NCBI GenBank assembly: GCA_018992685.1
Contig: JACVGT010000007.1
Span: 1 to 64,000 of the forward strand
DNA length: 64,000 bases
DNA from: Theionarchaea archaeon
Lineage (GTDB): Archaea; Methanobacteriota_B; Thermococci; Methanofastidiosales; SZ-28-30
Direction of reading: 5' to 3'
Below are positions 20,695 to 59,386 of this stretch, piece after piece (position 1 is the first letter of the stretch; every line of letters starts with the position of its first letter). Both the position numbers and the translations under genes were made by a program. The notes beneath the pieces are model-generated. The model had not been told where the DNA came from, did no database searches, and worked only from the letters and a program-made list of their open reading frames with translations.

Positions 20695-21155
20695 GGTTTA
20701 CCCTGTAAAAGCTCATTTATAAGCTTTTCGCTCGCCATTTAGGGACTGATAAACGTTTATCGCAATTTTAGCTTATAATTTCGTTCTGATCCGTTACTGA
20801 AAGTTCCTGAACGTTTCTGAACGTTTATAGTGTCATGAAAAGCGACTAGTTACAGAATACATTCAGGGTACAAGGGTAAAGAAATCGTGAGTTCAGCCCC
20901 CCCGATTCTGGGATATGAAGTGACTTTCTCAGGACTATCGAATCACTTCTAACTGTTGCTAATCGTTTCTTTGCAGTCTGATATGATCAATGTCTTCTCT
21001 GAGGAGTCTATTTTACCATAATTGCCCTCTTGACACTTTTTTCCGTTTTCCTGGTGATACCAGAACTCTCACGGGTTCGTGTCAGAGTGACCAGAGAGGA
21101 ATCTAAGAATGACCATGAGAAATCTATTTATGTAATCTATCAACAAGAACATTTC

Positions 21156-22202: not shown

Positions 22203-22205
22203 CCA

Positions 22206-34290: not shown

Positions 34291-34306
34291 TCACGTGCTC
34301 TGCAGA

Positions 34307-35467: not shown

Positions 35468-36516
35468 AAACCATTGTCTTGGGTAAGACTGGACTGGAAG
35501 TGTCCAGAGTCGGGATAGGTGGCATTCCTCTGAACCGTCCCTCCGAAGAGAAGGCAATCAAGGTGGTGCAGCGTGCTCTGGACCTGGGAGTCAATTTCAT
35601 CGACACTGCCAATGGATATTCAGAGAGTGAGAATCGCATCGGAAAGGCAATATCAGGACGCCGAGAAGAAGTAATCATAGCAACCAAGACAGGAAGACGG
35701 GATAAGGACGCAGCACTACAGGAACTGGAAGTCAGCCTAGAGAGGCTTCGCACTGATTATATTGATATCTGGCAGTTTCACGGTATCAACACTGCTGCGA
35801 TTCTGGAAAAAGTGTTAGAACCGGGTGGAGCAATGGAAGGAGCACAGGTTGCGTTGAGGAAAGGTAAAGTCAGGCATATTGGATTCAGCAGCCACAATCT
35901 GGAGATCGCTATGAAAGCGGTAAGTTCTGGTCAGTTTGAGACGGTTCAATTCCCCCTCAACTTCGTCTCCGATGAAGCTGCACCAAGTTTGGTCCCGCTG
36001 GCGAGGCAGGAAGACATGGGATTCATTGCAATGAAGCCATTTGCTGGAGGAAGGATACGAGATGCTGATCTTGCCATCAAATATCTGCTCCAATTTGACA
36101 CTGTTGTTCCAGATCCGGGTGTTCAGAAAGTCGAGGAAATTGAAGAAATTGTTGGAATTGTGGACAGTGAGTCATGGGAAGTGTCATCTCAGGACTTAGA
36201 AAGAATAGAAAGCATTCGTGAGAAAGTAGGGAAAAGATTCTGCCGGCAGTGCACCTACTGTATGCCCTGTCCTCAGGAGGTCTTCATATGTGGTGTCCTG
36301 TACTTGCCGATTTTGTGGGAGCTGTGGCCGTCTGATTGGTTTTTTAACTGGGACTACGTTAACCATTCGGTGAAAAGTGCGAAGAACTGCATAAGATGTG
36401 GCGAATGCGAAGAAAAATGCCCGTACTTATTGCCTATCAGAGAAATGATCGAGGAGAGTGTCAATTTCTTCGAACAGAAGGCAAGAGAGTATAATAGGAA
36501 GGAGATTAAGAACTAG
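35464..36516 (+). CDS. aldo/keto reductase with ferredoxin-like Cys-rich C-terminus (paralog 2)
   Basis: Overlaps the previous stop by 4 nt (ATGA). AKR core plus C-terminal CRQCTYCMPCP...CIRCGECEEKCP. Confidence 0.85.
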   Translation: MKTIVLGKTGLEVSRVGIGGIPLNRPSEEKAIKVVQRALDLGVNFIDTANGYSESENRIGKAISGRREEVIIATKTGRRDKDAALQELEVSLERLRTDYIDIWQFHGINTAAILEKVLEPGGAMEGAQVALRKGKVRHIGFSSHNLEIAMKAVSSGQFETVQFPLNFVSDEAAPSLVPLARQEDMGFIAMKPFAGGRIRDADLAIKYLLQFDTVVPDPGVQKVEEIEEIVGIVDSESWEVSSQDLERIESIREKVGKRFCRQCTYCMPCPQEVFICGVLYLPILWELWPSDWFFNWDYVNHSVKSAKNCIRCGECEEKCPYLLPIREMIEESVNFFEQKAREYNRKEIKN

Positions 36517-36535
36517 CACATAAGGAGGTTTGTAA

Positions 36536-37081
36536 ATGAACATGATTGAGAGAAAAGTCAGGTACTTCCCGAATTATGGAGCACAGAATACAGATCAAGT
36601 CATTGAAATTGTAAAGAATCGAGCAACAGAGGGTGATGTGAGGACAGTCGTGGTTGCCAGCACTTCTGGAGAAACGGGTGTCAAATTTTTAAGAGAACTC
36701 GGAGACATTGCAGCTGTTGTCGTCGTCTCACACGAGAAAATGAATCCCACCCACAAACAGCGCATTACTGAACTGGGTGGTATCGCACTGGACACGACTC
36801 ATCTACCTCTGCACACGCCAGGAATGGATCCTATCAGAGAGGCGTTTCGAACTCTTGGCCAAGGATTTAAAGTCGCAGTCGAAGTTATTCTTATTGCTTC
36901 CGACAAAGGAGAAGTTGCCGTGTACGAAGACGTTATTGGGGTAGGCGGAACTGGCCGAGGGGAAGACACTGCAATACTTGCCAGAGCAACCCCCACCCAA
37001 GATGCATTTGGCAGTGATGAGACGAAGAAACTGGAAATCAGGGAAATCCTTGCCATGCCACTGAAGAAGAAATGGTGGTAG
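36536..37081 (+). CDS. hypothetical protein
   Basis: 181 aa. Strong SD AAGGAGGT 8 bp upstream. Located between AKR paralogs 2 and 3. Confidence 0.5.
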   Translation: MNMIERKVRYFPNYGAQNTDQVIEIVKNRATEGDVRTVVVASTSGETGVKFLRELGDIAAVVVVSHEKMNPTHKQRITELGGIALDTTHLPLHTPGMDPIREAFRTLGQGFKVAVEVILIASDKGEVAVYEDVIGVGGTGRGEDTAILARATPTQDAFGSDETKKLEIREILAMPLKKKWW

Positions 37082-37095
37082 GAGAGGGTGCTGCA

Positions 37096-38310
37096 ATGCA
37101 ATACCGGGCATTTGGCAGGCTAGATTGGAGGGTATCTGCTCTTGGATTCGGGTGCATGAGACTCCCCTATCAGGAAGGAGACTATCGACGTATACGTGAA
37201 CCTGAAGCAACCCAGATGATTCACTATGCCATTGATCACGGAGTTAACTACGTGGATACTGCCTATAATTACCATGATGGGAACAGTGAGCGATTCCTCG
37301 GTCGGGCATTGAGAGGGGGGTATCGAGAGAAGGTCAAGCTTGCCACCAAGATGTTTCCTTTGTCCATTAAAGAATATGACGATTTTGACAGATTGCTCAG
37401 CGAACAATTGGAGAGACTGCAGACTGGTTACGTGGACTTCTACCTCCTACACGGGATGAATCACAGATGGTGGCCAAGGCTTCGTGATCTGGGAGTGCTG
37501 GACTGGGCCGAAGGAGCAGCTGATGATGGACGTATTAGGCATCTTGGGTTCTCCTTCCATGACGAATTTCCAACCTTCAAGGAGATAGTCGACGCCTATA
37601 GCAAATGGACCTTATGCCAGATACAGTACAACTACATGGACACAGAGCATCAAGCAGGCACCAAGGGTCTCAGGTATGCTGCATCCAAGGGGCTGGCAGT
37701 TGTCATCATGGAACCTCTGCTGGGGGGTTGGCTTGCACATGCTCCCCAAGAAACTGAAAAATTACTGGATACAGCACTTAAGACCCGTACTCCAGCCGAA
37801 TGGGGATTGCAGTGGCTATGGAATCACCCCGAAGTGTCAGTGGTGCTCAGCGGAATGAGCACGATGAACCAGGTTGAGGAAAATGTGGTCAGCGCGGACA
37901 GATCTAACACCAACCACTTGTCTGAAAGAGAGCTCGCGCTTGTGGATCAACTGCGGACAGCATTCCAGAAACTCAGTCCCATCCCATGTACAGGATGTGG
38001 CTATTGTAAGCCGTGCCCCAACAACGTTGACATCCCCTATAACTTCAAGCTATTCAATGATGGCGTGATGTATGAAAGAGAGAGTTTCTGGAGGGCCCGT
38101 CGGTGGTATCGCTTCATGAAAGAGGGGCTCAAGGGAGATTATCATTGCGAAAGAGGACAGGCTGGCACATGTGTTCAGTGCCAGGAATGTGAAGCCAAAT
38201 GTCCGCAGAGCATTCCCATCAGTCGGTTGATGCCAGTTGTCCACCAGGTGCTGGGTGAGGACATGCCGTACAGCAGCGTGAATCTGGAGAATCTCATGTT
38301 GCAGAAATAA
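37096..38310 (+). CDS. aldo/keto reductase with ferredoxin-like Cys-rich C-terminus (paralog 3)
   Basis: ATG 37096 with GGAGAGGGTG upstream. GFGCMRLP. C-terminal CTGCGYCKPCP...CVQCQECEAKCP. T8 tract after the stop. Confidence 0.85.
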   Translation: MQYRAFGRLDWRVSALGFGCMRLPYQEGDYRRIREPEATQMIHYAIDHGVNYVDTAYNYHDGNSERFLGRALRGGYREKVKLATKMFPLSIKEYDDFDRLLSEQLERLQTGYVDFYLLHGMNHRWWPRLRDLGVLDWAEGAADDGRIRHLGFSFHDEFPTFKEIVDAYSKWTLCQIQYNYMDTEHQAGTKGLRYAASKGLAVVIMEPLLGGWLAHAPQETEKLLDTALKTRTPAEWGLQWLWNHPEVSVVLSGMSTMNQVEENVVSADRSNTNHLSERELALVDQLRTAFQKLSPIPCTGCGYCKPCPNNVDIPYNFKLFNDGVMYERESFWRARRWYRFMKEGLKGDYHCERGQAGTCVQCQECEAKCPQSIPISRLMPVVHQVLGEDMPYSSVNLENLMLQK

Positions 38311-42485: not shown

Positions 42486-45059
42486 ATGGAGATTCAGACG
42501 CAGGAACTCCTAAAGACACTTTCAAACAAGACCAACCTCGAGATCATAAACTTGTTGAGAAACGAACCATCCTATCCCCGGAAAATATCTGAGATACTGG
42601 GAATGCAGGAAGGCTATATCTCGAGAATTCTCTCAAATCTCGAAAAAATGGGTATTTTGCGCAGTCAGTGGGCATATCGAGAACGTAATGTCAAGCTGTA
42701 CTATGTTGACACAAAGGAGATCAGCATCGCCTTTGAACCTGAAGGCTTGAAGCTTCACGTGAAGACCAAAGGTGAGAAAGAGGTATCTGTGTCTTATGAT
42801 GCGTTCAAGTTTGAAATACCTGAACCGCATGGCTTCATCAATAGAAGAAAGGAGCTGCAGTTGATTGATACTCAACCCATGGTCGTCATTGAAGGATTGG
42901 CGGGTATTGGAAAGACCTTCCTGGCTGCAGAGTATGCTCAGAACGTACAGCCAAGGGGGAAGAAGATCTTCTGGCATTCATTCACCGATATTGACTCCTT
43001 TCACTATGTTATCAACAAATTATCTGTATTCCTGAATAATGTGGGCCTTTCCAATCTTCTGGAGTATATAAAACAGGAGGGTAGGGACAGCAGGGTACTG
43101 CTTTCCCTCTTCCAGCGGGGAATGACAGAGGACATGGTATTCTGTTTTGATGGGTTTCAGAAAGTGCAGGATTCTGAACTTGTCACCATGTTCAAACTGC
43201 TCAAAGACCCAGTTGCAAAAATTATTGTTACGTCCCGGGAACGTCCTTCCTTTGTTACAATATCCCGGAGTGATATTACAGAAATCAGGTTATCAGCTTT
43301 CACTGAAAAAGAAGCCAGAGAGCTCCTTCATTCCAGAGGTGTCATTCTGGGAGACAAAATGATGAAAAAGGCCCACAGAAAACTGGGAGGTCATCCTCTG
43401 ATTCTGGACATGTTCTGTGAAGCAGCAAAAGAGAAGCAGCCAAACCTCGTTTTGGAAAACCTTCCTGGCCACCAGGTGGAAGATTATCTGTGGAGCGAAA
43501 TCTTTCAGACCCTGTCAGAGGATGAACGGAAACTTGTGGAGTGCTTGTCCATGTTCAGAATACCTGCATCGGTCGATATCCTTAAGAAGGTGTACCAGGC
43601 TCCTGGGTTCTGGACCTGCCTGAAGGGACTGGAAAAACGCATGTTTATCAGGAGACAGAACGGCGGATACGTGCTCCCCTCTTCGATTGTGGAATTCACC
43701 TATCAGAGAGTCCCCGACAAGGAGGAACTGCATTCAGAAATCGCTGCCTTCTACAAATGCCAGGGCACTTCAGAGGGGCTCCTGGAATCTATGTATCATT
43801 TCCTGCAGGGTGAAAACCAGGATGAGGCTGCTCGTCTGGTAGCACAACCTCAAGATGTCGATTTGATAGAAAGGGGGTACCTGTCACCCTATCTGGACAT
43901 TCTGAATGGGTTCAGGAAATCCAAGATATCCCCGGAGCTGTGGTGCTGTATCATGTGTGCCAAAGGTAGAATTCTGTCGTTGTATGGAGATTCCAAGAGT
44001 GCACTCCGGGCATTTGAGGAGATGCAGAAAACTGCTCAGACCATCCAGTCTGACAAGTACGACGCCCGGGCTCTACATTGGATAGGAAACATCCATGCGT
44101 CAAAAGGAGACTGGAAGACAGCGCACATGTGTCTTGACACCAGCCTGTCCATACTGGAAAGACTCCAGGAGCATGAGGAAATGGTGGGTATCCATGCAGA
44201 CATTGGATTGCTCTTGATGAAAGAGGGAGTATTTGAGAAAGCACTTTCTCATTTTCGGGCAGGAAAGGACATTGCCGAAAAGAGTGGGTTCATGTACGGC
44301 CTTTCACAGATGCTGCGAGGCATAGCAAATGTGTACTACTACCAGGATCAGTTCGACACAGCTCTGGAATTTCACACGAAGAGTTTGACCCTGGCTGAAA
44401 AGGTGAGGGATGTGAGGGGCATTGCAGCAAACTACAACACGCTGGGATTGATTCACTTCTATAAGGGTGATCTTGAAAAGGCCATATCCTGCTTTAAGAG
44501 GACGCTTAATATATCAGAGAGGATTTCAGATATCAGAGATCAGATCATCTCGTGCGGAAACCTGGGGATGGTGTACGCAGAGGGAGGAGAGAGCGGCCTG
44601 GCACAGAACTATTATCAGAGAGCGTTGCATCTGGCAGAATCGCTGGAGGATCTATACTCCATTACCTATTTGAAAATGAAAATGGCAAGTCTTCTCCTGG
44701 AGAAAAAAGAATTGGAGAAAGCTCGCGCTCTCTGCGAGGTGTGCGAGAACATGTTTTCCTTGTTGGGCAAGAGCCTTCATTACGGGGAGTTCTGCAGGAT
44801 TTTTGCCATGGTATTGCAGCAGAGAGGGGAATGGGAAAAAGCGCAGGAACTCTACCTCAAAAGTATTGATGAGACCAGTGGATCACCTCTTGAACTGGGA
44901 AAGACCTATTTAGAGTTTGGACTTGGGATGAAGAGATATGGATCACTGGAAGAAGCTGAAGCGTGTTACGAGATGGCGCTTCAACTGTTTCAGCAAGTAT
45001 CAGCAGAAAGAGAAAGAGAAAAAGCACAGGAGAAGTGGGGAGCTGACAATCGGGGTTAA
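42486..45059 (+). CDS. STAND-type signal-transduction ATPase: N-terminal winged-helix HTH, NB-ARC/AAA-like NTPase (Walker A GLAGIGKT), C-terminal TPR array
   Basis: 857 aa. ArsR-like wHTH in the first ~90 aa. P-loop VVIEGLAGIGKTFLAAEYA. At least 8 TPR-like repeats at the C-terminus. TATA aacttatatagg about 30 bp upstream. Confidence 0.8.
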   Translation: MEIQTQELLKTLSNKTNLEIINLLRNEPSYPRKISEILGMQEGYISRILSNLEKMGILRSQWAYRERNVKLYYVDTKEISIAFEPEGLKLHVKTKGEKEVSVSYDAFKFEIPEPHGFINRRKELQLIDTQPMVVIEGLAGIGKTFLAAEYAQNVQPRGKKIFWHSFTDIDSFHYVINKLSVFLNNVGLSNLLEYIKQEGRDSRVLLSLFQRGMTEDMVFCFDGFQKVQDSELVTMFKLLKDPVAKIIVTSRERPSFVTISRSDITEIRLSAFTEKEARELLHSRGVILGDKMMKKAHRKLGGHPLILDMFCEAAKEKQPNLVLENLPGHQVEDYLWSEIFQTLSEDERKLVECLSMFRIPASVDILKKVYQAPGFWTCLKGLEKRMFIRRQNGGYVLPSSIVEFTYQRVPDKEELHSEIAAFYKCQGTSEGLLESMYHFLQGENQDEAARLVAQPQDVDLIERGYLSPYLDILNGFRKSKISPELWCCIMCAKGRILSLYGDSKSALRAFEEMQKTAQTIQSDKYDARALHWIGNIHASKGDWKTAHMCLDTSLSILERLQEHEEMVGIHADIGLLLMKEGVFEKALSHFRAGKDIAEKSGFMYGLSQMLRGIANVYYYQDQFDTALEFHTKSLTLAEKVRDVRGIAANYNTLGLIHFYKGDLEKAISCFKRTLNISERISDIRDQIISCGNLGMVYAEGGESGLAQNYYQRALHLAESLEDLYSITYLKMKMASLLLEKKELEKARALCEVCENMFSLLGKSLHYGEFCRIFAMVLQQRGEWEKAQELYLKSIDETSGSPLELGKTYLEFGLGMKRYGSLEEAEACYEMALQLFQQVSAEREREKAQEKWGADNRG

Positions 45060-48904: not shown

Positions 48905-49825
48905 CTATTTCTTTCCCTTCTCGTAGTGTTTCCCAAGAGCTGCCGGTGGTACAGCTCTCTTCACTGCTCCAGCCAAGACCAGAATAGTCAGAACATAGGG
49001 AATCATCTGAATGAACTGATTGGCAGCCACTGTCCCCTGCAATTTCATTTGCAGAGCATCAGTAAAACTGAAGAGAAGACTTGCTCCAAAGGCTCCTGCA
49101 GGGTTCCATTTGCCAAAGATGTTCGCCGCCAGAGCGATGAATCCTCTCCCTGCAGACATGTTTTGGCTGAACAGGTTCAACCATCCCAGGGACAGGTAGG
49201 CACCCCCCAACCCCGATAGCATGCCGCTGGCTGTTACAGATAAATACTGAATCCGGTGCACGTTGATTCCCACGGTATCTGCAGCCTCTGGGTGCTCACC
49301 TACTGCCCTAATTCTCAATCCCAGAGGAGTCCTAAACATGATGACCCAGGCAGCAACAACAATCACAATCATGATGTATACCAGAGGGTTTTGCTGGTCA
49401 AAGATATCCTTGAGGTAGGGAATGTCTCTGATCAGTGGGATGGACAAGGGCTTCAATCCGGAAACAGGGTCTGACGCTCCCCTATTTCCCCAGATGATCT
49501 GGAGCAACAGCGTGGTAAGCCCAAGAGAAAGAATATTCACTCCCACTCCACTGACGACCTGATTTGCTTTGAACTGGATACATAGTACCGCATGCAGCAA
49601 TCCAAAGGCCCCGCCTGCCAGGACTGCGCACAGCACACCGATCCAGGGATTTCCCAGAAAATGTGTGCCCACTACACCAGCAAAAGCACCCATCAGGATC
49701 ATGCCTTCCAGTCCGATATTAATGATACCACTGCGTTCTGAGTACGCGCCCCCGATGGAGGCCAGGGCAATAGGGGGAGATATCCTTAAGGTTGCACCCA
49801 GCAGTATGGCAATACTAGAAAGCAT
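48905..49825 (-). CDS. ABC transporter permease (BMP-family nucleoside uptake system, permease 2)
   Basis: Polytopic membrane protein. Start MLSSIAILLG at 49825 preceded by AGGAGGG. Confidence 0.8.
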   Translation of the reverse strand: MLSSIAILLGATLRISPPIALASIGGAYSERSGIINIGLEGMILMGAFAGVVGTHFLGNPWIGVLCAVLAGGAFGLLHAVLCIQFKANQVVSGVGVNILSLGLTTLLLQIIWGNRGASDPVSGLKPLSIPLIRDIPYLKDIFDQQNPLVYIMIVIVVAAWVIMFRTPLGLRIRAVGEHPEAADTVGINVHRIQYLSVTASGMLSGLGGAYLSLGWLNLFSQNMSAGRGFIALAANIFGKWNPAGAFGASLLFSFTDALQMKLQGTVAANQFIQMIPYVLTILVLAGAVKRAVPPAALGKHYEKGKK

Positions 49826-50894
49826 TGGCAATCCCTCCTTTCCTGATTTTCTTGAAGATTCTGAACATTTCAGGAGCTGCCACAAACAGTATCACGATAC
49901 CCTGGATCACCACCACCAGATCTGTGGGGACATTGGTCATCTGTTTCATGACCATCCCTCCGTTCCGCAGAGCACCAAACAGCAAAGCACCCAGTACTAC
50001 TCCCACAGGATGGTTTCTCCCCAGAACAGCAACAGCGATCCCGTCAAATCCGTACCCCGGGGAGAATCCGAAAATAAACCGTTTGTGCAGTCCCAGTACC
50101 TCGCCTGATCCACCCAGTCCTGCCAGCATTCCTGATATGAACATCGATATGATAATGCTTTTCTGGACACTTATCCCCCCGTATTCTGCAGCTGTGGGGT
50201 TGAGTCCTACTGCTCTGATTTCGTATCCCAGGGTAGTCCTATACAGAATATAGTACGTGACACCGACGCAAATGAGAGCCACGATTATGGCTGCTGATAA
50301 CTGGGTGGAGGGTACCAACCGTGGAAGCTGGGCTGATGGTGTAACAACATCAGTCTGAGCAATCCATCCTTCAGCCTTCAAAGGATAGTTGGCCAGATAG
50401 TTGCACAGGAGCACACCGATGTAATTCATCATAATGGTGGTAATCACTTCATGGGCACCCACCCTGGCTTTCAACACACTGGGCACCAGAGACCATGCAC
50501 CACCTGCAAGGGCCCCGGCTCCCAGGGCCAAAGGAATGTGAAAGAACCAGGGAAGCCAGGCAAAGTTGATCCCTACCACGGCAGCAGTAATGGCCCCAAC
50601 GTACAGTTGTCCCTCACCACCAATGTTGAATAACCCACATCGAAAGGCGAAGGCCACGGTCAGCCCTGTAAAGATGAGGGGTGTTGCCCTTGTGAGGGTC
50701 TGGGCAAAATCATACGTACTGCCGAATGCACCTTCGTACAGTGCCTTGTATGCCTCAAGAGGCGATGAGCCTGCAAGATATACAATCACTGCTCCCACCA
50801 AAAGGGCAGCAATAACAGCAATGATTGAGATAAAAATGTCCATCAGACTTTCTTTTTGAATAACCTGAGTTATTTTTATTAATCGTGGATTCAT
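49815..50894 (-). CDS. ABC transporter permease (BMP-family system, permease 1)
   Basis: 359-aa polytopic membrane protein. Start overlaps the ATPase stop by ATGA. Confidence 0.8.
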   Translation of the reverse strand: MNPRLIKITQVIQKESLMDIFISIIAVIAALLVGAVIVYLAGSSPLEAYKALYEGAFGSTYDFAQTLTRATPLIFTGLTVAFAFRCGLFNIGGEGQLYVGAITAAVVGINFAWLPWFFHIPLALGAGALAGGAWSLVPSVLKARVGAHEVITTIMMNYIGVLLCNYLANYPLKAEGWIAQTDVVTPSAQLPRLVPSTQLSAAIIVALICVGVTYYILYRTTLGYEIRAVGLNPTAAEYGGISVQKSIIISMFISGMLAGLGGSGEVLGLHKRFIFGFSPGYGFDGIAVAVLGRNHPVGVVLGALLFGALRNGGMVMKQMTNVPTDLVVVIQGIVILFVAAPEMFRIFKKIRKGGIANAF

Positions 50895-52420
50895 GCGTGT
50901 CCACCTGCCATCAATAATCCCAGTTCTTCTTCAGTGGTCTTCTGAGGATCTCGCTCTCCCACAATTTTCCCTTCGTAGATGACAGCGATCCTGTCAGAGA
51001 GACAGCGAACCTCATCTAAATCTGCAGAAATGAGAAGTATGGCCTTGTCCTTTTTCCTCATGCTGAGAAGGGTTTCATGGATGAACTCGATTGCGCCCAC
51101 GTCGAGACCTCTGGTAGGCTGTGAAGCGATAATAATCTCGGGCTCTCTTCCCAGTTCTCTGGCCACAATCACTTTCTGCTGGTTTCCACCTGACAGATAT
51201 TTGACCTCACTGTGTACCCCAGTTCCTCTAATGTCAAAGGTCTCCACCAGCTCGGACGCATATGAATCCACCTTATCATATTCCATTCTGAACCCGCGGG
51301 AAAAAGGAGCCTTAAAGTGGGATCCCAGTATCAGATTCTCGGATAGAGAGAAATCCTGGATGAGCCCTCTCTTCTGGCGATCTTCAGGGATGTGGGATAC
51401 TCCTGCGTTGATGAAGTCCCTCGGGGAGGAATGTGTTAGATCTTCCCCGTTTACAAGAATCTTCCCCCCGCTTGGGCTTCGCAGTCCCGTTGCCGTTTCT
51501 GCCAGTTCCAACTGGCCATTGCCTTCAACTCCCGCAATGCCAAGAATCTCACCTTTCCGCAGTTCCAATGTTATCCCCTGTAGGGCTTTCACTCCTCTCT
51601 CATTGTATGCTTCCAGGTTCTGCATCTGCATCACAGCCCCCTTTGGGGGGTGAGGAGGTTTTTCCACTACCAGGCAGACTTCTCTGCCCACCATCATTCT
51701 TGCCAGACTGGCAACATCTGTTTCCCCGGTGTGAACTGTTCCCACCAGTTGTCCTTTTCTCAGCACGGTGATGCGGTCACAGGTCGCCATGGGTTCCTTC
51801 AGTTTGTGGGTGATGAAAATGATAGTCTTTCCTTCTTCTTTTAACGATTTCATAACTTTGAACAGTTCTTCCCCTTCTTGTGGGGTCAAGACTGCTGTTG
51901 GTTCATCCAGAATGAGAATTTCAGCTCCCCGGTACAATGCTTTCAGAATCTCTACTCGCTGTTCAATGCCTACTGATATATCCTGGATCTTGGCTCTGGG
52001 GTCTACAGCAAGACCATACCGTTTTGAGATTTCTTCAACATCTCGTGCTGCCTTTTCTCTGTCCATGAGGAAATGAGTCTCCGGCTCAACACCCAGGACA
52101 ACGTTCTCAGCCACAGTGAAGGGAGGCACTAACATGAAGTGCTGGTGGATCATGCCAATACCCAGTGAGATCGCATCATTGGGATTTGTTATCGCAGTGG
52201 GCTTACCATTAACAGAAATTTCACCAGAATCAGGCTGGTATAGCCCATACAAGACGTTCATTAACGTGGTCTTTCCCGCACCGTTTTCTCCAAGAAGAGC
52301 ATGAATTTCTCCTTTTCTAACTGAAAAAGTAATATCGTCATTCGCCAGAACACCAGGGAAGCGCTTGGTTATGTGTTGCATCTCCACAGCATTGATGGGT
52401 TCTGCATTCATTGCCATCAT
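50891..52420 (-). CDS. ABC transporter ATP-binding protein with duplicated NBDs (sugar/nucleoside importer type)
   Basis: Two Walker A motifs (GENGAGKTT, GVEGNGQLE-type) and two LSGG signatures in about 510 aa. The ORF is open from GTG 52489; I chose ATG 52420. Confidence 0.85.
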   Translation of the reverse strand: MMAMNAEPINAVEMQHITKRFPGVLANDDITFSVRKGEIHALLGENGAGKTTLMNVLYGLYQPDSGEISVNGKPTAITNPNDAISLGIGMIHQHFMLVPPFTVAENVVLGVEPETHFLMDREKAARDVEEISKRYGLAVDPRAKIQDISVGIEQRVEILKALYRGAEILILDEPTAVLTPQEGEELFKVMKSLKEEGKTIIFITHKLKEPMATCDRITVLRKGQLVGTVHTGETDVASLARMMVGREVCLVVEKPPHPPKGAVMQMQNLEAYNERGVKALQGITLELRKGEILGIAGVEGNGQLELAETATGLRSPSGGKILVNGEDLTHSSPRDFINAGVSHIPEDRQKRGLIQDFSLSENLILGSHFKAPFSRGFRMEYDKVDSYASELVETFDIRGTGVHSEVKYLSGGNQQKVIVARELGREPEIIIASQPTRGLDVGAIEFIHETLLSMRKKDKAILLISADLDEVRCLSDRIAVIYEGKIVGERDPQKTTEEELGLLMAGGHA

Positions 52421-52534
52421 AAGCGTATTTCCCTTAAAAAGGCTACCGGTTGCATCTCTGGTGGCAGTATTTGATGGGCGAATTCTCACGATAACAGCTT
52501 AGGCAGTTCCTGCAAAATCAGACACCTCGCCCCT

Positions 52535-54379
52535 CTACTTCCTCATGGCTGTCTTTCTTTCATGATTTTCGGTTCTAGCCTCTGCCCCTGGCACTCTTTT
52601 GTCTGCTCTCAGCACTGAGATGATGTTCTCGAGAGACTGGTCATAGTACAATACGCCCCTTTCTCTGAGAATCTCCAGTATGTGCAAAAGCTCTTTCTCC
52701 TCCAGATGGGAAAAGTGTTGCTGTACCTGGGTGAATGACGTTATGCTGTCACAGAAAACTAGAAGGTCGGTCTCGTCTCTGCTAAAGGTACAGGAAAGAG
52801 ACCTTGATCCTTTTTCCTTAAAGGCAGAACAATCGGGATATTCTGTCCACTGATAATCGCTTCCAGCCCGGGAATAAAACTGCAGAAGTCTTTGAAAGGT
52901 GTTCCACAAAAGGTAGTGGCGAATTCTCCCTGCAAAGAATCCAAAGAATTCAAATCGTTCCCCCTCTGGCAGCTGCAAGACAGATGCGATTTCTGCCCAC
53001 ATGGGGTCTTTGTTGTAGGCATCCCTTTCATGTTCTGACATCTCATTGTAATATGGTGATCCCTTGTACAGTGTGAAGTACTTGGGGACAATGGAATACT
53101 TCCTCAGGAAGAATCTCAGAAATCTCAAGTTCACACAACTCTCCAGGACGTCTTCCTCAGTTTCAGGTGGCGTCTCTGCTACAAAATTCCCTTTGATCTC
53201 GAGGTTGTGTTGATCCCCGAGCTTGAGAGCCTGTATATTGTGGGCAAAAGAGTGTCTCTTTTCCATTTTCTTCAAGAGAGCATCAGTCATTGCTTCAAAT
53301 CCGATCTGCACGATTTCAAAACAAACCTTTTTCATGGCACGTGCTGTATCGGGGTTGATGAAGATTGGAGATGCTTCTGCAAAAAGGCGGTAGGGACGTC
53401 CTCTTCTTTCAGAACTTTCCACAATCAGGGCAAGCAGATGGTGGAATCGCTTCTTGTTACCGGGGAGTTCAGTATCTACAAATACGAATGTGTCACCACC
53501 GTGTCTCTTGGACTGGAATTCCAGTTCTTCGACAATGTTCTCAGGAGATCGAGCCCGATATGAGAATTCCTCATTCAGAACGCAAAATTTGCACCTGTTC
53601 CAGGGGCAGGAGCGCGACCCCCAAATGGGGATGATGACCCGCATGTCTTCATGAATGTGGGTTTTCAGTGCCGCAAAATAGTCTGTGTGGTCTGCAAATG
53701 GGTATGAATCCAGATCACAGCTTTCAGAATGCTTGTTTGTTGAGATGATGGCGGCACCATCCCGGTACACCAGATGAGGGATCTCGGTGAACGTTCCCTC
53801 TCGTATCCCCTGAATCAGATGAACCAAAGGGTATTCTCCCTCCCCCCATACAGCGTAGTCAGCCAGCTCAAATACCTTCATAAAGGCGTGAGCCTGTTCA
53901 TCATTGCGAATCCCTCCAATGACGATCTGTATTTCGGGGTTTAATTCTTTCAGTCGCCTCATTACATAAGAGCTCAGAAGCCACTGGTAGGTCTTTAGAG
54001 TAAATCCCGCCAGAGGTTCTTTGTAGAGGCCATTTTGGTATATGTAGTCATCGATTTTTGTTCGAAGTGTGTCTACAAAGGGAGGTATTTTCCCCTGATC
54101 AAAAAAGGGTGAAAAATACTGGTCGAGAACAGTCGTCTCGTGATGGGCACCTGAGAGATGTCTCACTGTATACAGAACGGGAGTATTAAGAGAGGACAAG
54201 GATGAAAACACAGGATAGTCCCCAATGTGATCCTGGAGTTCTGACAGCTCCTCAGCAAGTATTAGATTCCAGTAGATATTTGTCACAGAGATTCCCCTTG
54301 ATTGCAGGAACCCTTTCAGATATCCCAAAGCAGGATTGGGAATATCGTAACTGTAGGGGGGCAAACAGTTTAGTATCAT
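52535..54379 (-). CDS. B12-binding-domain radical SAM protein (class B), with atypical Cx4Cx2C cluster motif and ~150-aa C-terminal extension
   Basis: N-terminal Rossmann-like cobalamin-binding region (MILNCLPPYSYDIPNPALGYLKGFL). Radical SAM core with GSRSCPWNRCKFC. Start overlaps the upstream gene's stop by ATGA. Confidence 0.8.
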   Translation of the reverse strand: MILNCLPPYSYDIPNPALGYLKGFLQSRGISVTNIYWNLILAEELSELQDHIGDYPVFSSLSSLNTPVLYTVRHLSGAHHETTVLDQYFSPFFDQGKIPPFVDTLRTKIDDYIYQNGLYKEPLAGFTLKTYQWLLSSYVMRRLKELNPEIQIVIGGIRNDEQAHAFMKVFELADYAVWGEGEYPLVHLIQGIREGTFTEIPHLVYRDGAAIISTNKHSESCDLDSYPFADHTDYFAALKTHIHEDMRVIIPIWGSRSCPWNRCKFCVLNEEFSYRARSPENIVEELEFQSKRHGGDTFVFVDTELPGNKKRFHHLLALIVESSERRGRPYRLFAEASPIFINPDTARAMKKVCFEIVQIGFEAMTDALLKKMEKRHSFAHNIQALKLGDQHNLEIKGNFVAETPPETEEDVLESCVNLRFLRFFLRKYSIVPKYFTLYKGSPYYNEMSEHERDAYNKDPMWAEIASVLQLPEGERFEFFGFFAGRIRHYLLWNTFQRLLQFYSRAGSDYQWTEYPDCSAFKEKGSRSLSCTFSRDETDLLVFCDSITSFTQVQQHFSHLEEKELLHILEILRERGVLYYDQSLENIISVLRADKRVPGAEARTENHERKTAMRK

Positions 54380-55713
54380 TCATGGGCCTCCTTTTGCTTA
54401 CTGACATATGTTTTCACCTGTGGCAGCCCGAAAACCTGCCTGGTAAAATCCACGGTGAAACAGCCAGGAGCATCCAGTGTTCCTTTCTCTCTCAATGCAA
54501 TGGCAGGGCATCCCCCCATACACCGGGGAAGCATGACGCAGGCTTTACACTCAGTAATGGCCAGGGGGTTGCGGGCCATCCACGAGTAGTATGCAGGTGT
54601 TTTGTCCAGAGAACCACGAGAGTTCAGAGACCCCACAGCATGGCGGGTGTCTCCTACCAAAGACATGCACTTGTAGACACGGCCATCCACATTGATGATG
54701 TGAAACCAATCAGTAATACCAGCACACAAGGAAAAGTACACACCAATTCCAAAAGGGAGTGTGGTGAATCCTTTGTGAGCAGCCATTTCCATGACTTCAC
54801 TGAAGAGATCTGAAGTCCCCGGATATCCGTAAGAACTGTAGTAGTGGGTACAGTAATCCATGCGGGGAGTAACCGTCCCAAAGTAGGTATGGGCCTTCTC
54901 AAGGCCAGCTTCTCTCAACATTTCAAGAAAGGTAATGATATTGTCTTCCCATACGTTAATTCGCATAATCAGATTCATGCCATGATCTTCAACACATTGG
55001 GCACCCTCTACCACTGATTGCAGGCTGCTTGTCTCATCAGGGAAAACCCTCCTGGTGTGGTGGTAGTACTCAGGTGCATCAAAAGTGATATGAATATCTG
55101 CTACCGTGAACTGTGAGAGGTTGTCGAGTCCTTCAGGAGTAAGGAGAGTTCCATTGGTGAAGAGCTTGATGAGGAGAGAAATACCTGCTTCACTACATGC
55201 CTCTTGCAGGGTTTCAGTAAGAGAGGTTATGCACTCTTGATTCAAGAGTGGTTCTCCTCCGTAAAGACTCACAAAGAGCGTGTCAATGCCTCGTACGATC
55301 TGATTCTCAGCAAAGGTTACCCCTCTTTCTGCTACCTTCTTGCTCATATGCCCAGTGCAGGCAGAAGAATTCCTGTAGCAGTACCTACAGTTCAAGTTGC
55401 ATTCGTGCGTGACAATGAAGTTCAAGAATGCAACTCTCCCAAGAGGAGAGCCCCGATATCCTGTAGAGGGGAGGCACCACTTCTTCTGTTCCAAGGAAGC
55501 CTGTATCAAGTTCATCTCTTGACCGGTGTCCTCTATGAGAAGTCCCTGCTTTGATAGTGCTTCAATAATCTCAGGGGAGCCTTTTCCGGTCATGAGGACG
55601 TCATACATTTCAGAATCAATCACTGTGAGAGACCCGTTCAATGTATTGTATACAAGGAAATCCTCTCTAAATGGGATAATAAAGCAGTACTGTGATCTCT
55701 GCATAATAATCAA
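54376..55713 (-). CDS. radical SAM/SPASM-domain peptide-modifying enzyme (anSME-like), paralog 2
   Basis: ~95-aa N-terminal domain (FIIPFREDFLVYNTLNGSLTVID). CNLNCRYC (Cx3Cx2C). GGEPLL. C-terminal SPASM cysteines (CKACVMLPRCMGGCPA). ATGA overlap with the upstream gene. Confidence 0.85.
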   Translation of the reverse strand: MIIMQRSQYCFIIPFREDFLVYNTLNGSLTVIDSEMYDVLMTGKGSPEIIEALSKQGLLIEDTGQEMNLIQASLEQKKWCLPSTGYRGSPLGRVAFLNFIVTHECNLNCRYCYRNSSACTGHMSKKVAERGVTFAENQIVRGIDTLFVSLYGGEPLLNQECITSLTETLQEACSEAGISLLIKLFTNGTLLTPEGLDNLSQFTVADIHITFDAPEYYHHTRRVFPDETSSLQSVVEGAQCVEDHGMNLIMRINVWEDNIITFLEMLREAGLEKAHTYFGTVTPRMDYCTHYYSSYGYPGTSDLFSEVMEMAAHKGFTTLPFGIGVYFSLCAGITDWFHIINVDGRVYKCMSLVGDTRHAVGSLNSRGSLDKTPAYYSWMARNPLAITECKACVMLPRCMGGCPAIALREKGTLDAPGCFTVDFTRQVFGLPQVKTYVSKQKEAHE

Positions 55714-57053
55714 ACCCAGATGATCTTTCCCGCCTTGAACCGGTCAGGAAGCTTCTTTTCGAGGTACCAACGAAGCTGATGTTTCATTTCCTGGTACGGT
55801 GCATAGCATCCAACTGCGTGGAATGTCCCATGCTTTTCATATGCAACAGCAGCACATCCTCCCCCACATGAGGGTAGCATCTGGCACTCACGACATTCCG
55901 GTATCTGCAGGGGGTCTCTGCTCATCCAGTCGTAGTAGGTCCATGTATACTCTGGTATGGTACCGTCTTCTGAAATATGACCAATGGAATGGTTTTTCTG
56001 CCCCACGAAGGTGAGACACTTGTAAAGATCTGCATGAGGATCTATGATGAAGGTTCCTTCCCCTAGGAATCCACAAAAGACGTGAGCTGGCTTGTGGGTG
56101 CGAATGACAGCAGCCGCTTGACCTTTTTGATCCACAATATCTCTGAATTCAGCAAGTACCTCACGGGCTTCTTCCTCTTTAATGCACTTGGAGTAGTCCT
56201 TACATGCTTGAGTTGATGCCCCCACTGTACCACAGCGCACAGGGACATTCTTGAATCCCCTCTCCTGAAGCTCGTCCAGCAGCTCACCGATGAACGGTCT
56301 GCTTTCAGAATCCACGTTCACCCTAAAGCTCACTCCGACGTTTTGGTCCTGCAGAATGTGAGCTGATTGCATCATGTCATCAAAGGTACCTCCTCCACTC
56401 TTGTAGAATCGTTTGGTGTCGTGGATGCGTTTGGGACCATCCAGCGTGATCTGTACGTAGTCTGTGTGGTAGCGCTTCAACGTTTCAGCTATTTCAGGTG
56501 TGACCAGAGTACCATTTGTCACCATCATTGTCACGTATGAGATGCCGTGGTCTTCTGCCCAGGAAAAGCAGGAATCCATAATGTACTCAGAATCGTCGAA
56601 TCTGAGCAGTGGTTCACCACCATACAGCGACACAGAAAATTCCCGCGCGTGAGTGTCTTCCACGTATTTCTTTATGAATTTCACAGTTCTTTCCCTGGTG
56701 TCAGCATTCATTGTCCCGCGGAATAGCTCTCCTTTTCCTTCATAGCAGTATGGACATGCTAGATTGCAGGCATATGTCGTTATGAGCATGAAATGGGGAA
56801 AATCCACCGTGTATTTCCTGTATTCATATCCTACCTTGAATTTTCGAGATTCATCAAAATCATCTTCTATGATTACCTTGAGCGCTGCAAGAGATTTGAA
56901 CAAGTCAGAATCCAGAATGTCAATATTCCCGGCTTTCAAAGCTTCCTTCAGCTCTTCATCTATTCCTATTACTGCACCACTCATCATGTTGGCCAACAGG
57001 TATTCTCCAGGAGTCTCTGTGGGGATAACTATGTTGAAGTTTGACACTTTCAT
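55710..57053 (-). CDS. radical SAM/SPASM-domain peptide-modifying enzyme (anSME-like), paralog 1
   Basis: N-terminal RRE-like segment (NIVIPTETPGEYLLANMMSGAVIGID). CNLACPYC. GGEPLL. C-terminal CRECQMLPSCGGGCAA SPASM cysteines. ATG 57053 preceded by GAGGTGA; the ORF track begins at GTG 57062. Confidence 0.85.
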   Translation of the reverse strand: MKVSNFNIVIPTETPGEYLLANMMSGAVIGIDEELKEALKAGNIDILDSDLFKSLAALKVIIEDDFDESRKFKVGYEYRKYTVDFPHFMLITTYACNLACPYCYEGKGELFRGTMNADTRERTVKFIKKYVEDTHAREFSVSLYGGEPLLRFDDSEYIMDSCFSWAEDHGISYVTMMVTNGTLVTPEIAETLKRYHTDYVQITLDGPKRIHDTKRFYKSGGGTFDDMMQSAHILQDQNVGVSFRVNVDSESRPFIGELLDELQERGFKNVPVRCGTVGASTQACKDYSKCIKEEEAREVLAEFRDIVDQKGQAAAVIRTHKPAHVFCGFLGEGTFIIDPHADLYKCLTFVGQKNHSIGHISEDGTIPEYTWTYYDWMSRDPLQIPECRECQMLPSCGGGCAAVAYEKHGTFHAVGCYAPYQEMKHQLRWYLEKKLPDRFKAGKIIWV

Positions 57054-57062
57054 GAGGTTCAC

Positions 57063-57096
57063 CTCAGGAAAAAAGAAAGGCAGGTTGAACTGCCTT
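57063..57096 (-). terminator. hairpin (7-bp stem aaggcag/ctgcctt, 6-nt loop) followed by U6 tract, placed between the small Cys-rich ORF and the first rSAM gene
   Basis: Minus-strand reading: aaggcag ttcaac ctgcctt tcttttttcc directly after the TAA of the 35-codon ORF. Candidate partial terminator/attenuator. Confidence 0.45.
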
Positions 57097-57107
57097 TTGT
57101 TATAGAC

Positions 57108-57215
57108 TTACACATAGGGGTGGCAAATTCTGCAGCACCAGGAACCAGTTCCTTCCGTGATGCACAGAGGCTCCATGATTTGCTCTTCTGCTTCGATGAG
57201 GATAGTCATGTTCAT
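57108..57215 (-). CDS. 35-aa Cys-rich peptide, candidate precursor/substrate of the adjacent radical SAM enzymes (MNMTILIEAEEQIMEPLCITEGTGSWCCRICHPYV)
   Basis: Not in the supplied ORF track (shorter than 60 aa). ATG at 57215, TAA at 57108-57110. Acidic N-terminal half, C-terminal half with 4 Cys + Trp + His + Tyr. SD-like GGAAGTGG 6-13 nt upstream. Two TATA boxes upstream. Hairpin plus U-tract downstream. Same strand as, and 46 bp upstream of, the rSAM trio. Confidence 0.55.
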   Translation of the reverse strand: MNMTILIEAEEQIMEPLCITEGTGSWCCRICHPYV

Positions 57216-57224
57216 AGATTCCAC

Positions 57225-57268
57225 TTCCTATTGCTATATAAAGTTTCTCTTTATCTTTATATACTTTT
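57225..57268 (-). promoter_or_regulatory. archaeal TATA/BRE-like promoter elements for the small Cys-rich ORF
   Basis: Minus-strand gtatataaag (57255-57264) and ctttatatagc (57233-57243), about 45 and 23 bp upstream of ATG 57215. Confidence 0.4.
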
Positions 57269-57430
57269 CTATTCATATGAATTCTACTAATTTCGTCACT
57301 CTTATAGTAATCAAATAAGAGCAAATGCAGAAGCCAGTAGTCTTTAAAGACAATATCTCTTGATATTTTGGACTACTTTCGTCCATGTGAGGTTAAATGC
57401 AGAGATTCTCAACCGAAATGCCCCCTTTTC

Positions 57431-57449
57431 TCACTTTTGTAAAAAGTGA
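57431..57449. promoter_or_regulatory. perfect 8-bp-arm palindrome tcacttttGTAaaaagtga
   Basis: Arms 57431-57438 and 57442-57449 are exact reverse complements. Lies between the SBP terminator tract and the peptide promoter. Confidence 0.4.
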
Positions 57450-57530
57450 TAATGTTCGGTAGAAGAGCTCTCCCTCACAGATTTTGCAGAATCTGGTAAT
57501 TGCACCTGCGATCATGAGCTGGCCCGAGAA

Positions 57531-57560
57531 CAAAAAAGTAAAAAGTAAAAAGAAGAAGTA
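57531..57560 (-). terminator. oligo-T terminator tract after the SBP gene (ttcttcttttttactttttactttttt)
   Basis: Immediately 3' of the TAA at 57561-57563. Archaeal termination typically occurs at oligo-T runs. Confidence 0.4.
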
Positions 57561-58601
57561 TTAATCCCAGGTGTATTCACCGGCCTCGTCAATACCAGTG
57601 GGAACCTTGATTTCGCCAGATGCGATCTGCTCCCTGTAGTCTTCAATGATGTCTCGTATGTCATTAGGCACGTGCTCGCAAGCACCAACACCATTCTCTT
57701 TTGCGCCAAAGCTCTGTATGCCGCCTGCAAAAGTCCCGTCGATTACCTGCCGTATGGTCTCGTATACAGCTACATCCACACGCTTTATCATACTGCATAA
57801 GAAGGTCGTTACCGGTACTCCCTCAATGGTGTCGCACTGATCCGCATCTACGCCAATGACCAATCCACCACGTTCAAAAGCCGCCTGGATAGCTCCCAAG
57901 CCAGATCTTCCGGCAGCAGCGAACACGATGTCTGCCTCTCCGTCATACTGAGCAAGGGCAAGCTCCTTTCCTTTTGCAGGGTCTACCCAGTCGCCCACAT
58001 ACTTCCAGGTGACCTCAACATCTGGATTGACGTACTCGGCTCCAAACTTGTAGCCAGCCAGGAATTTTCGAATCAAGGGTATGTCCATTCCACCTACAAA
58101 TCCAATCATATCAGTTTCAGTTTTCAGACCAGCAGCTGCTCCTACCAGGAAACTACCTTCGTTTTCCCTGAATACAAGAGAAGCCACATTAGGTTTGTCT
58201 ACCACCATGTCCACGATCGCAAACTTCTGGTCGGGGTATTCATCTGCAACAACAGTGATGGCATCTGCCTGATCAAATCCTATACCTATTATCAGTGCAT
58301 ATTCCCCGGACTTGGCGTACTGCCTGTGGAATCCTTCGTACTCAGCGATGGCTGTAGGTTCAACATAGTCAAATTCAATGCCGAAATCATCTCTAGCCTT
58401 CTTGATACCTACGTAACAACTATCATTGAAGCTCTTGTCTCCTAGTCCACCAGTGGCAAAGACAACAGCAATTTTCAATTCGGGGGGTGGGGGTGTAGAA
58501 GTTGGTGTCGGAGTTGTGGTTTCTTCCTCCTGTCCGATGCATCCCAATGTAAGGGAGCACAAAACTACCAGGGTGAACAGCATCTTAATACTTTTGTTCA
58601 T
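57561..58601 (-). CDS. BMP-family (PnrA/Med/TmpC-like) ABC transporter substrate-binding lipoprotein, nucleoside-binding type
   Basis: Start MNKSIKMLFTLVVLCSLTLGCIG (signal peptide plus lipobox-like Cys) preceded by GGAGGG 5 bp upstream and TTTAAA box about 45 bp upstream. Periplasmic binding fold typical of BMP proteins. The ORF track extension to 58757 is non-coding. Confidence 0.8.
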   Translation of the reverse strand: MNKSIKMLFTLVVLCSLTLGCIGQEEETTTPTPTSTPPPPELKIAVVFATGGLGDKSFNDSCYVGIKKARDDFGIEFDYVEPTAIAEYEGFHRQYAKSGEYALIIGIGFDQADAITVVADEYPDQKFAIVDMVVDKPNVASLVFRENEGSFLVGAAAGLKTETDMIGFVGGMDIPLIRKFLAGYKFGAEYVNPDVEVTWKYVGDWVDPAKGKELALAQYDGEADIVFAAAGRSGLGAIQAAFERGGLVIGVDADQCDTIEGVPVTTFLCSMIKRVDVAVYETIRQVIDGTFAGGIQSFGAKENGVGACEHVPNDIRDIIEDYREQIASGEIKVPTGIDEAGEYTWD

Positions 58602-59386
58602 ATGATTCCCTCCACGCTCACAGAGCTTGAGTAGATTTAAATACGTTTCGATGAAGCACCGAGGGTTCACTTTGATGTTAGAAGGAGCGTATGCGAGTCG
58701 TTGCTTTTCCGAAATGATGGTCCATTTGCAGGCCAATGAAGTCCTCCTCAAGAGCAACTGGGATTCGCTTTTTCTTTCTTACCCTCTTCCAGCTTTTCCT
58801 TCTTGTTTACAGGGTTCCGGTACAGTCCTTGTGTGAGAATCCCCTTTCTCATTCTTGAAGAAGTTCCTTCATTCTTGAGACCCCTCGCCCAGCCTCAAGG
58901 AAGCGTTGCTCTTCAGAACCAAAAAAGCTTTAGGGTCAAGGACTGAAAGGGAGGTGAAAGATGTGAATCTGCCCGTTTCAGTAAAACCCTCAATTTCCCC
59001 GCTCTCTCGGTTCTGGGTTCAGAAGGAAGGAGTTTTCGTGACCAACGGCGCCCGTGATTTAAGGGACCCAGAAAGCTGTAGCTCCCACTGTTAAAGTTGA
59101 AATAATTAGAACTCTTTGCTGAAGTCCCATCGGCATTCAAAATGTTCTCGTTCTCACTACCTGTTCTGGTGGGTAGGACGCCCCGGCAGCCCTGTCCCAA
59201 AGCTTCTGCTCTCACGTACATTTTGATCTCCTGGTTCTTTCAACTTCCTTCCTCTGGAGACTGAGATGGAGGTTCAGTAGCGTGGATTCCTGCAGCCTGC
59301 ATCTCAGTCCATGTGTACAATCCTGTCTGAAAAACGGGATACACCTACGGAAGATTTATATAGGGTTTATATTAATTTTCTGTTGC

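Follow-up and report, generated by a model that had tools for sequence, protein, structure and literature searches.

The stretch of DNA analysed here (64,000 nucleotides, hereafter the window) comprises positions 1-64,000 of contig JACVGT010000007.1 of an uncultured Theionarchaea archaeon, and all coordinates refer to this whole stretch. On its minus strand, from 57250 to 52535, the open reading frames (ORFs) read from the sequence form a series of four genes: a small peptide ORF, two radical S-adenosylmethionine (rSAM) enzymes designated rSAM_A and rSAM_B, and a third rSAM enzyme, predicted to be of the B12 type (class B). An earlier note, made from the sequence alone, had proposed that these four ORFs, all of which were found, constitute a maturation cassette for a peptide made by the ribosome and modified after translation (RiPP).

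The series opens with a promoter (57235..57250, minus strand), read from the sequence as a purine-rich motif agagaaac resembling a B recognition element (BRE) and a TATA box TTTATATA at 57242-57235, which ends 19 nt 5' of the peptide ATG. The putative precursor peptide gene (57108..57215, minus strand) has 35 codons plus a stop, encodes MNMTILIEAEEQIMEPLCITEGTGSWCCRICHPYV and was recognised both as an ORF and by family conservation. It is followed by a hairpin (57067..57097, minus strand) with an 8-bp stem and a 6-nt loop, AAAGGCAG-ttcaac-CTGCCTTT then CTTTTTT, and by a Shine-Dalgarno-like GAGGTGA (57059..57065, minus strand) located 5 nt 5' of the rSAM_A ATG. Both rSAM_A (55710..57053, minus strand, 447 aa) and rSAM_B (54376..55713, minus strand, 442/445 aa) are composed of a RiPP recognition element (RRE), a radical SAM domain and a SPASM domain. 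They carry the motifs CNLACPYC and CNLNCRYC, respectively, and GGEPLL in each case, and are paralogues with 28% identity over their full length. The B12-type enzyme (52535..54379, minus strand, 614 aa) was identified by profile matches and by its motif CPWNRCKFC, which follows the pattern CX4CX2C and not CX3CX2C.

The earlier note had described the three enzymes as chained by ATGA overlaps. This holds for the junction between rSAM_B and the B12-type gene, the sole ATGA junction in the cassette. The junction between rSAM_A and rSAM_B reads tgg gtt TGA tta tt ATG, and rSAM_B may start either at TTG 55713, giving a TTGA overlap, or at ATG 55704, 5 nt past the rSAM_A stop. The ATG start is the more likely one.

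The peptide family and its regulatory surroundings

A small-ORF profile search was run on every locus fetched, including the contigs of the rSAM_A orthologues, which were drawn from NCBI metagenome-assembled genomes (MAGs), JGI, ENA and Logan (23,665 six-frame small ORFs in 919 kb). It returned 16 matches with E-values from 1e-18 to 4e-24, the next match having an E-value of 0.02. All 16 strong matches are on the same strand as an rSAM_A-type gene and directly 5' of it. For 11 copies the gap between the two genes was measured and amounted to 42-78 nt; the loci of the remaining five copies are organised in the same way. The rSAM_A orthologues form a tight group with 56-92% identity, their next relatives reaching at most 38%, and the peptide ORF is syntenic in every one of their loci that could be read. 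Conservation and synteny of the small ORF in relatives had been singled out as a check by the earlier note, and both were found in all 16 copies. Counting three further predicted proteins, the family comprises 11 distinct sequences, with a known length range of 30-37 residues.

The consensus of the family is M-[NE]-M-K-V-L-V-G-A-E-E-x-x-V-E-P-L-C-[IP]-x-E-G-x-G-[SA]-W-C-C, followed by a variable tail (RICHPYV, KICSPYF, IYWW, VYWW, IYWY or YV). A divergent branch, found at loci L003-5, reads ...PICQWGHDLWCNKYCFEFLF. Cysteines occupy positions 18, 27, 28 and 31. Of the four-cysteine core described at first, C18 and C27 are universal and never vary and C28 is nearly universal, while C31 turned out to be lineage-specific. 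Trp26 is near-invariant, being replaced by Val in the variant P0126.

Comparison of the window peptide gene with that of locus L002 gave 6, 2 and 16 nucleotide differences at codon positions 1, 2 and 3, respectively. Within the 14-codon core EPLCITEGTGSWCC, 9 changes are synonymous and 0 non-synonymous. Judged from these sequence comparisons, purifying selection acts on the peptide frame and the small ORF is a real gene. Its significance lies in this conservation, a 35-codon ORF being unremarkable by itself. A 74-aa ORF overlapping the peptide in another frame (57100-57324, minus strand) was rejected, both because its frame is intact only in close relatives (L001), being interrupted in L002 and L003, and because the substitution pattern fits the peptide frame.

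Gene callers mostly overlook the peptide: only 6 clusters were recovered among 5.8e9 predicted proteins, using padded query sequences, and 2 representatives among 1.84e9. In the profile search of the latter set, P0122 and P0124 were the only genuine matches, and five others were discarded as spurious since they were long repetitive proteins aligned over 4-11 partial stretches. No family matched the peptide among the NCBIfam and Pfam models.

Two loci depart from the single-copy situation or from an intact peptide. Locus L092 contains two tandem units of precursor and rSAM_A on one contig (290-412 and 2009-2131), whose cores are near-identical and whose tails differ (...WCCIYWW versus ...WCCVYWW). 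Duplicated precursor-maturase units with differing tails are typical of natural-product RiPPs. At locus L095, the ORF located 5' of rSAM_A (813-971) keeps the leader, has lost the Cys residues (MNISVLVGKKEGEPLYPLRGKSAWIKN...) and runs on into the start of the enzyme gene. This is either a precursor that has decayed or undergone a frameshift, or an error of sequencing.

The regulatory elements recur along with the peptide. Each of the nine upstream regions read, among them those of L002, L003, L092a, L092b, L093, L094 and L096, has a BRE/TATA element of the form GAAA[AC][AC]-TT[T]ATA[AT]A ahead of the peptide ORF. A scan for sigma-70 promoters gave nothing above shuffled controls, such a scan being uninformative for archaea. 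In the window the hairpin has a free energy (dG) of -13.9 and a z-score of -2.2. A GC-containing hairpin with a T-run was detected in 8/11 gaps between the peptide and rSAM_A, with five unrelated stem sequences. The background frequency of such sites, 0.55 per kb and strand, corresponds to about 0.03 expected per gap. The sequence GAGGTG is also kept at the same position before rSAM_A in the orthologues. The order read by the earlier note in the window alone, namely an own promoter for the precursor, an attenuator-like hairpin and then the enzymes, is thus found again across orthologues with differing stems, and this conserved layout supports the proposed arrangement.

The hairpin and T-tract resemble a terminator or an attenuator, and an attenuation role may be proposed by analogy with bacterial RiPP operons. 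The precursor would be transcribed from its own BRE/TATA promoter, most transcripts would stop at the hairpin and T-tract and some would read through into the enzyme genes. Such a read-through control would yield much precursor and little enzyme. A short ORF directly 5' of enzyme genes and followed by a hairpin and T-tract could also be a cis-regulatory upstream ORF, serving as an attenuation leader, with the real substrate encoded elsewhere or not a peptide. We consider this very improbable, because the Cys/Trp/Gly-rich motif is kept, with synonymous changes, across loci whose enzymes are only 56-73% identical, and because the ORF has a BRE/TATA promoter of its own. Moreover, the enzymes bear an RRE, which is a peptide-binding domain, and the closest enzyme families all act on adjacent small peptides.

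Family, fold and domains of the enzymes

The best NCBIfam matches of rSAM_A were CefB (NF038107, 383 bits), TIGR04463 (215 bits), Clo7bot (202 bits), geopeptide (184 bits) and PapB (161 bits). CefB was also the best family for rSAM_B, with 219 bits, PapB reaching 112 bits. Further down the list came DynA (113 bits), the SCIFF maturase TIGR03974, or CteB (99 bits for a cut-off of 425), YhhB (88 bits), FxsB (67 bits) and GrrM (66 bits). The scores of rSAM_A were low for anSME (89 bits, cut-off 349), QhpD (96 bits, cut-off 453) and MftC (66 bits, cut-off 265). For both enzymes, the peptide-maturase profiles outscore those of anSME, QhpD and MftC 2-4-fold. The profile search suggested by the earlier note thus groups the SPASM enzymes with RiPP maturases. 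As these scores remain below every cut-off, rSAM_A and rSAM_B belong to no named equivalog.

The domain content agreed with the first description of two paralogous SPASM enzymes with their rSAM motifs, GGEPLL and auxiliary-cluster cysteines. The radical SAM model PF04055 scored 70 bits in rSAM_A and 50 bits in rSAM_B (gathering threshold 29.5), and the Cys triad of the CX3CX2C motif is invariant in 18 rSAM_A orthologues. The SPASM model TIGR04085 was passed by both enzymes (56.9 and 49.6 bits, respectively, for a cut-off of 27). Seven SPASM cysteines (C327, C346, C387, C390, C396, C400 and C416) are likewise invariant in the 18 orthologues. Sequence reading found no GYW motif in either rSAM_A or rSAM_B.

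Among PDB entries, the closest by sequence is CteB (5WGG, E-value 3e-31), followed by the cyclopropyl synthase TigE. With Foldseek, CteB aligns at full length and anSME structures are next-best. Alignments to anSME begin at residue 93-95. In the predicted model, fold comparison showed that the N-terminal 95 residues adopt an RRE fold (PqqD-like winged helix, beta3-alpha3), in agreement with the earlier proposal that the N-terminal extension of about 90 residues is RRE/PqqD-like. This domain was modelled alone with 86 sequences and reached a predicted local distance difference test (pLDDT) score of 88, the full-length AlphaFold2 model being moderate (pLDDT 68). Pfam was also searched with the first 95 residues of seven enzymes of types A and B and returned no PqqD match, so that the RRE assignment rests on fold comparison.

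These results bear on the idea that the SPASM enzymes are protein maturases of the anSME or QhpD type, the neighbouring ORF being incidental. The matches to anSME and QhpD are significant though weak, and anSME structures come directly after CteB in the structural comparison. Nevertheless the scores are 4-fold under those of the peptide maturases and far below the cut-offs. The anSME enzymes do not have an N-terminal RRE, whereas the cassette enzymes show the RRE fold. In addition, neither sulfatase nor QHNDH genes were found in the flanks examined, and the peptide co-occurs strictly with rSAM_A. This idea is accordingly hardly credible.

The computationally defined CefB family (Cys-every-fifth) is comparable to rSAM_A in its three-part architecture, N-terminal domain included, aligned over 1-437 of 444, and the CefB-named protein P0119 is 34% identical to rSAM_A. 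The equivalog cut-off of CefB is 600, whereas the cassette enzymes score 383 and 219 bits. The CefB system is further characterised by a Cys at every fifth residue, unlike the positions 18, 27, 28 and 31 of the cassette peptide, and the cassette differs by its archaeal host, its second paralogue and its B12 enzyme. No Cys-rich small ORF that could be a CefA-type precursor was detected within 3 kb of P0119. PapB (NF047865; freyrasin) and CteB (TIGR03974; 5WGG/5WHY) share with the cassette enzymes the succession of RRE, radical SAM and SPASM domains, with two auxiliary clusters. The precursor is short, contains Cys and has a single conserved motif of the Cys-Xn-Glu/Asp kind that PapB cross-links (PMC9413430). 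Unlike the PapB substrate, however, it lacks six CX3D repeats, and the PapB cut-off of 340 exceeds the scores of both enzymes. Similarly, the SCIFF precursor has six Cys in 45 residues, whereas the cassette peptide has 3-4 Cys, a much shorter leader and no match to the SCIFF model.

The third enzyme was best matched by TIGR03975, with 163 bits for a cut-off of 281.85, over residues 6-577 aligned to profile positions 6-594 of 606. Of its 16 significant NCBIfam matches, 15 are B12-rSAM families. The B12-binding model PF02310 scored 25.1 bits, below the gathering threshold of 32.1, and covered only profile positions 66-120; it is listed in the precomputed Pfam annotation of many homologues. The CX4CX2C motif is invariant in 115 homologues, as is a Cys at position 543. 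The enzyme is 100% identical to the NCBI protein P0132 from a Theionarchaea MAG. Its clade (P0132-P0251) includes at least 115 full-length clusters with 44-56% identity, the named ones all coming from Theionarchaea or Methanofastidiosia, and JGI mis-annotates many of its members as YgiQ, MiaB or BchE. From its sequence, the enzyme is presumed to be an accessory tailoring enzyme, a C-methyltransferase. The full-length match and the RiPP context are those of the TIGR03975 C-methyltransferases (PoyB/PoyC-like group), from which it differs by its score below the cut-off, its CX4CX2C motif and the lack of NHLP/Nif11 proteusin precursors.

Gene combinations and genomic context

Loci were typed by BLAST of all large ORFs together with their gene tables. 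The peptide is associated with rSAM_A alone in L003-5, with rSAM_A and rSAM_B in L002 and L012, with rSAM_A and the B12-type enzyme on contig xmo-LRTx, and with all three enzymes in the window and L006. Orthologues of rSAM_B stand directly after rSAM_A in L001, L002, L006, L012, L094 and L096-99 and are absent from L003-5 and xmo-LRTx. In addition to the two tandem units of L092, locus L093 shows the order B12-type enzyme, rSAM_A, peptide and truncated rSAM_A. The peptide and rSAM_A are the sole invariant pair across loci. This modular architecture implies that rSAM_A would be the core maturase, and that rSAM_B, the B12-type enzyme and, where present, a YcaO protein would act as tailoring enzymes.

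An enlarged cluster was found in L096 (8428-19968), where it is complete, and in L094 and L097-L099 as far as the contigs reach. It consists of an additional rSAM_A copy (A'), the peptide, rSAM_A, rSAM_B, a protein with a YcaO domain (127 bits for TIGR00702), an unknown protein of 379 aa and two B12 enzymes, and its peptide ends in ...GAWCCYV. The presence of YcaO suggests an added backbone chemistry, thioamide or azoline. In L094 and L096, a second precursor was sought 5' of the additional rSAM_A copy, with no convincing candidate.

Additional CefB-like SPASM pairs or triplets, about 33% identical to rSAM_A, were observed in the SZ_28-30 MAG and on other metagenomic contigs, at L007 (5468-8087), L009 (497-3365), L008 and L013-L015. 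They presumably have their own precursors, a candidate being MSIRKIKTGKKFKIVDTPQELDKCMMCSL at 590-682 of L013. These extra pairs and triplets point to a broad cassette expansion in these archaea.

In the window, the cassette lies within an operon for an ABC importer of the Bmp/PnrA type (48905-58757, minus strand). It lies between the gene of the substrate-binding protein (57561-58757) and that of the ATPase (50891-52489), the latter followed by two permease genes (49815-50894 and 48905-49885), all on the minus strand. This gene order is common to the window, L001 and L006 and absent in the other loci. It suggests that the cassette was inserted in this lineage specifically and may be co-transcribed with the importer. 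The B12-type gene stops 45 nt before the ATPase gene begins, and no terminator was predicted in this interval. Since the flanks are unrelated at the other loci, the cassette has moved. The GC profile gave no compositional trace of a recent insertion. The window is collinear with a contig of Theionarchaea archaeon SZ_28-30, with about 83% nucleotide identity over 12 kb.

The importer context also bears on a further alternative, in which the peptide would give rise to an intracellular cofactor or to a redox or metal-binding molecule, as in the pyrroloquinoline quinone (PQQ) and mycofactocin pathways, and not to a secreted product. The window-lineage cassette, lying within a housekeeping importer operon and perhaps co-transcribed with it, fits this idea. 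Furthermore, MftC and PqqE-type enzymes are likewise RRE-dependent SPASM enzymes, and the gene tables of the loci showed no protease, exporter or immunity gene conserved with the cassette. Yet the MftC profile reached 66 bits only, and no partner oxidoreductase or conserved cofactor-using enzyme was found. Mycofactocin and PQQ precursors are recognised by a C-terminal GVY and an E-X3-Y motif, whereas the cassette peptides have variable tails and lack these motifs. The hypervariable C-terminal tail and the duplicated units with variant tails are unlike cofactor precursors. The varying set of accessory enzymes, the patchy distribution among Theionarchaea contigs and the decayed precursor at L095 also argue against this explanation, which is clearly improbable.

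Other genes of the window were recorded in passing. An 857-aa STAND-type protein with an ArsR-type helix-turn-helix, an NB-ARC domain and TPR repeats is encoded at 42486-45059 (plus strand). Large TPR proteins also flank L093 and L095, with no link to the cassette established. Two regions on the plus strand (21030-23396 and 34277-38310) encode the 2-hydroxyglutaryl-CoA dehydratase D-component, in two neighbouring genes, and three aldo/keto reductases, of which two carry ferredoxin domains. They look like ordinary anaerobe metabolism, unrelated to the cassette.

Proposed chemistry and significance

We interpret the locus as a cassette making a radical-SAM-modified RiPP with a thioether as the leading chemistry, and assign to this reading a probability of about two in three (0.68). 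The more general statement, which takes the locus for a precursor-maturase cassette of a RiPP whatever its chemistry, is highly probable; the Cys thioether taken by itself stands at roughly even odds. The RiPP interpretation of the earlier note is supported by the conserved syntenic peptide and by the RiPP-maturase-like scores of the enzymes. The best reading is that of a new Theionarchaea-restricted family of putative radical-SAM crosslinked peptides with an optional B12-dependent methylation.

According to the proposed mechanism, the RRE of rSAM_A would bind the N-terminal segment M-x-M-K-V-L-V-G-A-E-E of the peptide. By means of a 5'-deoxyadenosyl radical and two auxiliary SPASM clusters, rSAM_A would then introduce an intramolecular cross-link in the motif EPLC-xx-EG-x-G-x-WCC. 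The likeliest product would be a Cys-derived thioether of the sactipeptide or ranthipeptide type. This guess is put first because every top-ranking family, as well as the enzyme of the best structure, matures Cys-containing peptides or forms thioethers. PapB forms Cys-Xn-Asp/Glu thioethers with n=0-6 (PMC9413430), and a candidate link here would join Cys18 to Glu21 within the conserved C-X2-E, the L003 peptides having C-X4-D instead. A second cross-link would be added by rSAM_B, and an unactivated carbon would receive a methyl group from the B12-type enzyme.

Several points weigh against this interpretation. Transcription termination in archaea does not require hairpins, which leaves the attenuator role an analogy with bacteria. 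With about 14-17 residues the putative leader is very short, and the conservation spans most of the peptide, which blurs the leader/core boundary. No enzyme of the cassette attains the curated cut-off of any named family, so that function is not transferable by equivalog rules. To these must be added the missing protease, exporter and immunity genes already mentioned. Finally, related SPASM/RRE enzymes also form C-C bonds, for instance the cyclopropyl synthase TigE (PMC10878394).

This last point leads to the possibility that the same RiPP logic serves another chemistry, with C-C or C-O cross-links such as a Trp/Tyr-based cyclophane, a Lys/Arg-aromatic link or a cyclopropane, the cysteines acting only as auxiliary-cluster ligands or in disulfides. 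It is favoured by the near-invariant Trp26, by the many aromatic tails (IYWW, VYWW, IYWY, HPYV, SPYF and FEFLF), by the weak matches to the cyclophane or C-C formers DynA, YhhB, FxsB and GrrM and by the proximity of the enzymes to TigE. However, each of the five highest-scoring families matures Cys-rich peptides or forms thioethers, the thioether synthase CteB is closest in structure, and P0126 has Val for Trp26 whereas C18 and C27 never vary. The TigE/TvgB cyclopropyl synthases (8VPO; PMC10878394) are defined by a GYW motif that gives a tyrosyl ligand to auxiliary cluster I and act on precursors with TIGSVS/TVGG-type repeats, while the cassette has neither the motif nor the repeats. A chemistry of this kind is rather unlikely.

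A bolder reading, which appears doubtful, would make the peptide family the founder of a new RiPP class and its product the first radical-SAM-modified archaeal peptide, with a cross-link unlike the thioethers of sactipeptides and ranthipeptides. Such a cross-link may involve the Trp-Cys-Cys triad or the aromatic tail, together with B12-dependent methylation and, in the sister clusters, YcaO. As exporter and protease genes are absent, the product might then have an intracellular metal or redox role rather than act as an antibiotic.

The earlier note had presented a candidate undescribed archaeal cassette; the kind of system to which it belongs is known. Clusters of RRE-dependent rSAM/SPASM enzymes have been predicted by the thousand (PMC10288494), and archaeal rSAM RiPP clusters are abundant but remain predictions, only lanthipeptides having been experimentally validated (PMC12144867). 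The latter survey mined archaeal rSAM clusters as ranthipeptide- or sactipeptide-like, the bin into which the cassette would fall. It makes no mention of Theionarchaea or Methanofastidiosia and characterises only lanthipeptides, whereas a specific precursor family and a conserved regulatory layout are defined here. A literature search on CefB, NF038107, TIGR04463, Clo7bot and 'Cys-every-fifth' found nothing relevant. What is new is the precursor family, together with a clade of enzymes that score under all curated cut-offs, the RRE-rSAM/SPASM kind being already known.

As the general logic is well known from bacterial systems, the conceptual advance is moderate, and the cassette is a good experimental lead without being a conceptual surprise. 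It constitutes a compact test case with a sharply conserved short precursor, one obligatory maturase and separable accessory enzymes. Since rSAM_B, the B12-rSAM enzyme and YcaO occur in natural combinations, each modification could be assigned by comparison. In practice, the enzymes may provide new peptide-crosslinking or methylating biocatalysts. For the biology of these archaea, the promoter and hairpin arrangement would mirror the control of precursor-to-enzyme stoichiometry of bacteria, and B12-rSAM and CefB-like SPASM enzymes would have undergone a large expansion, as yet unexplored, in Theionarchaea and Methanofastidiosia.

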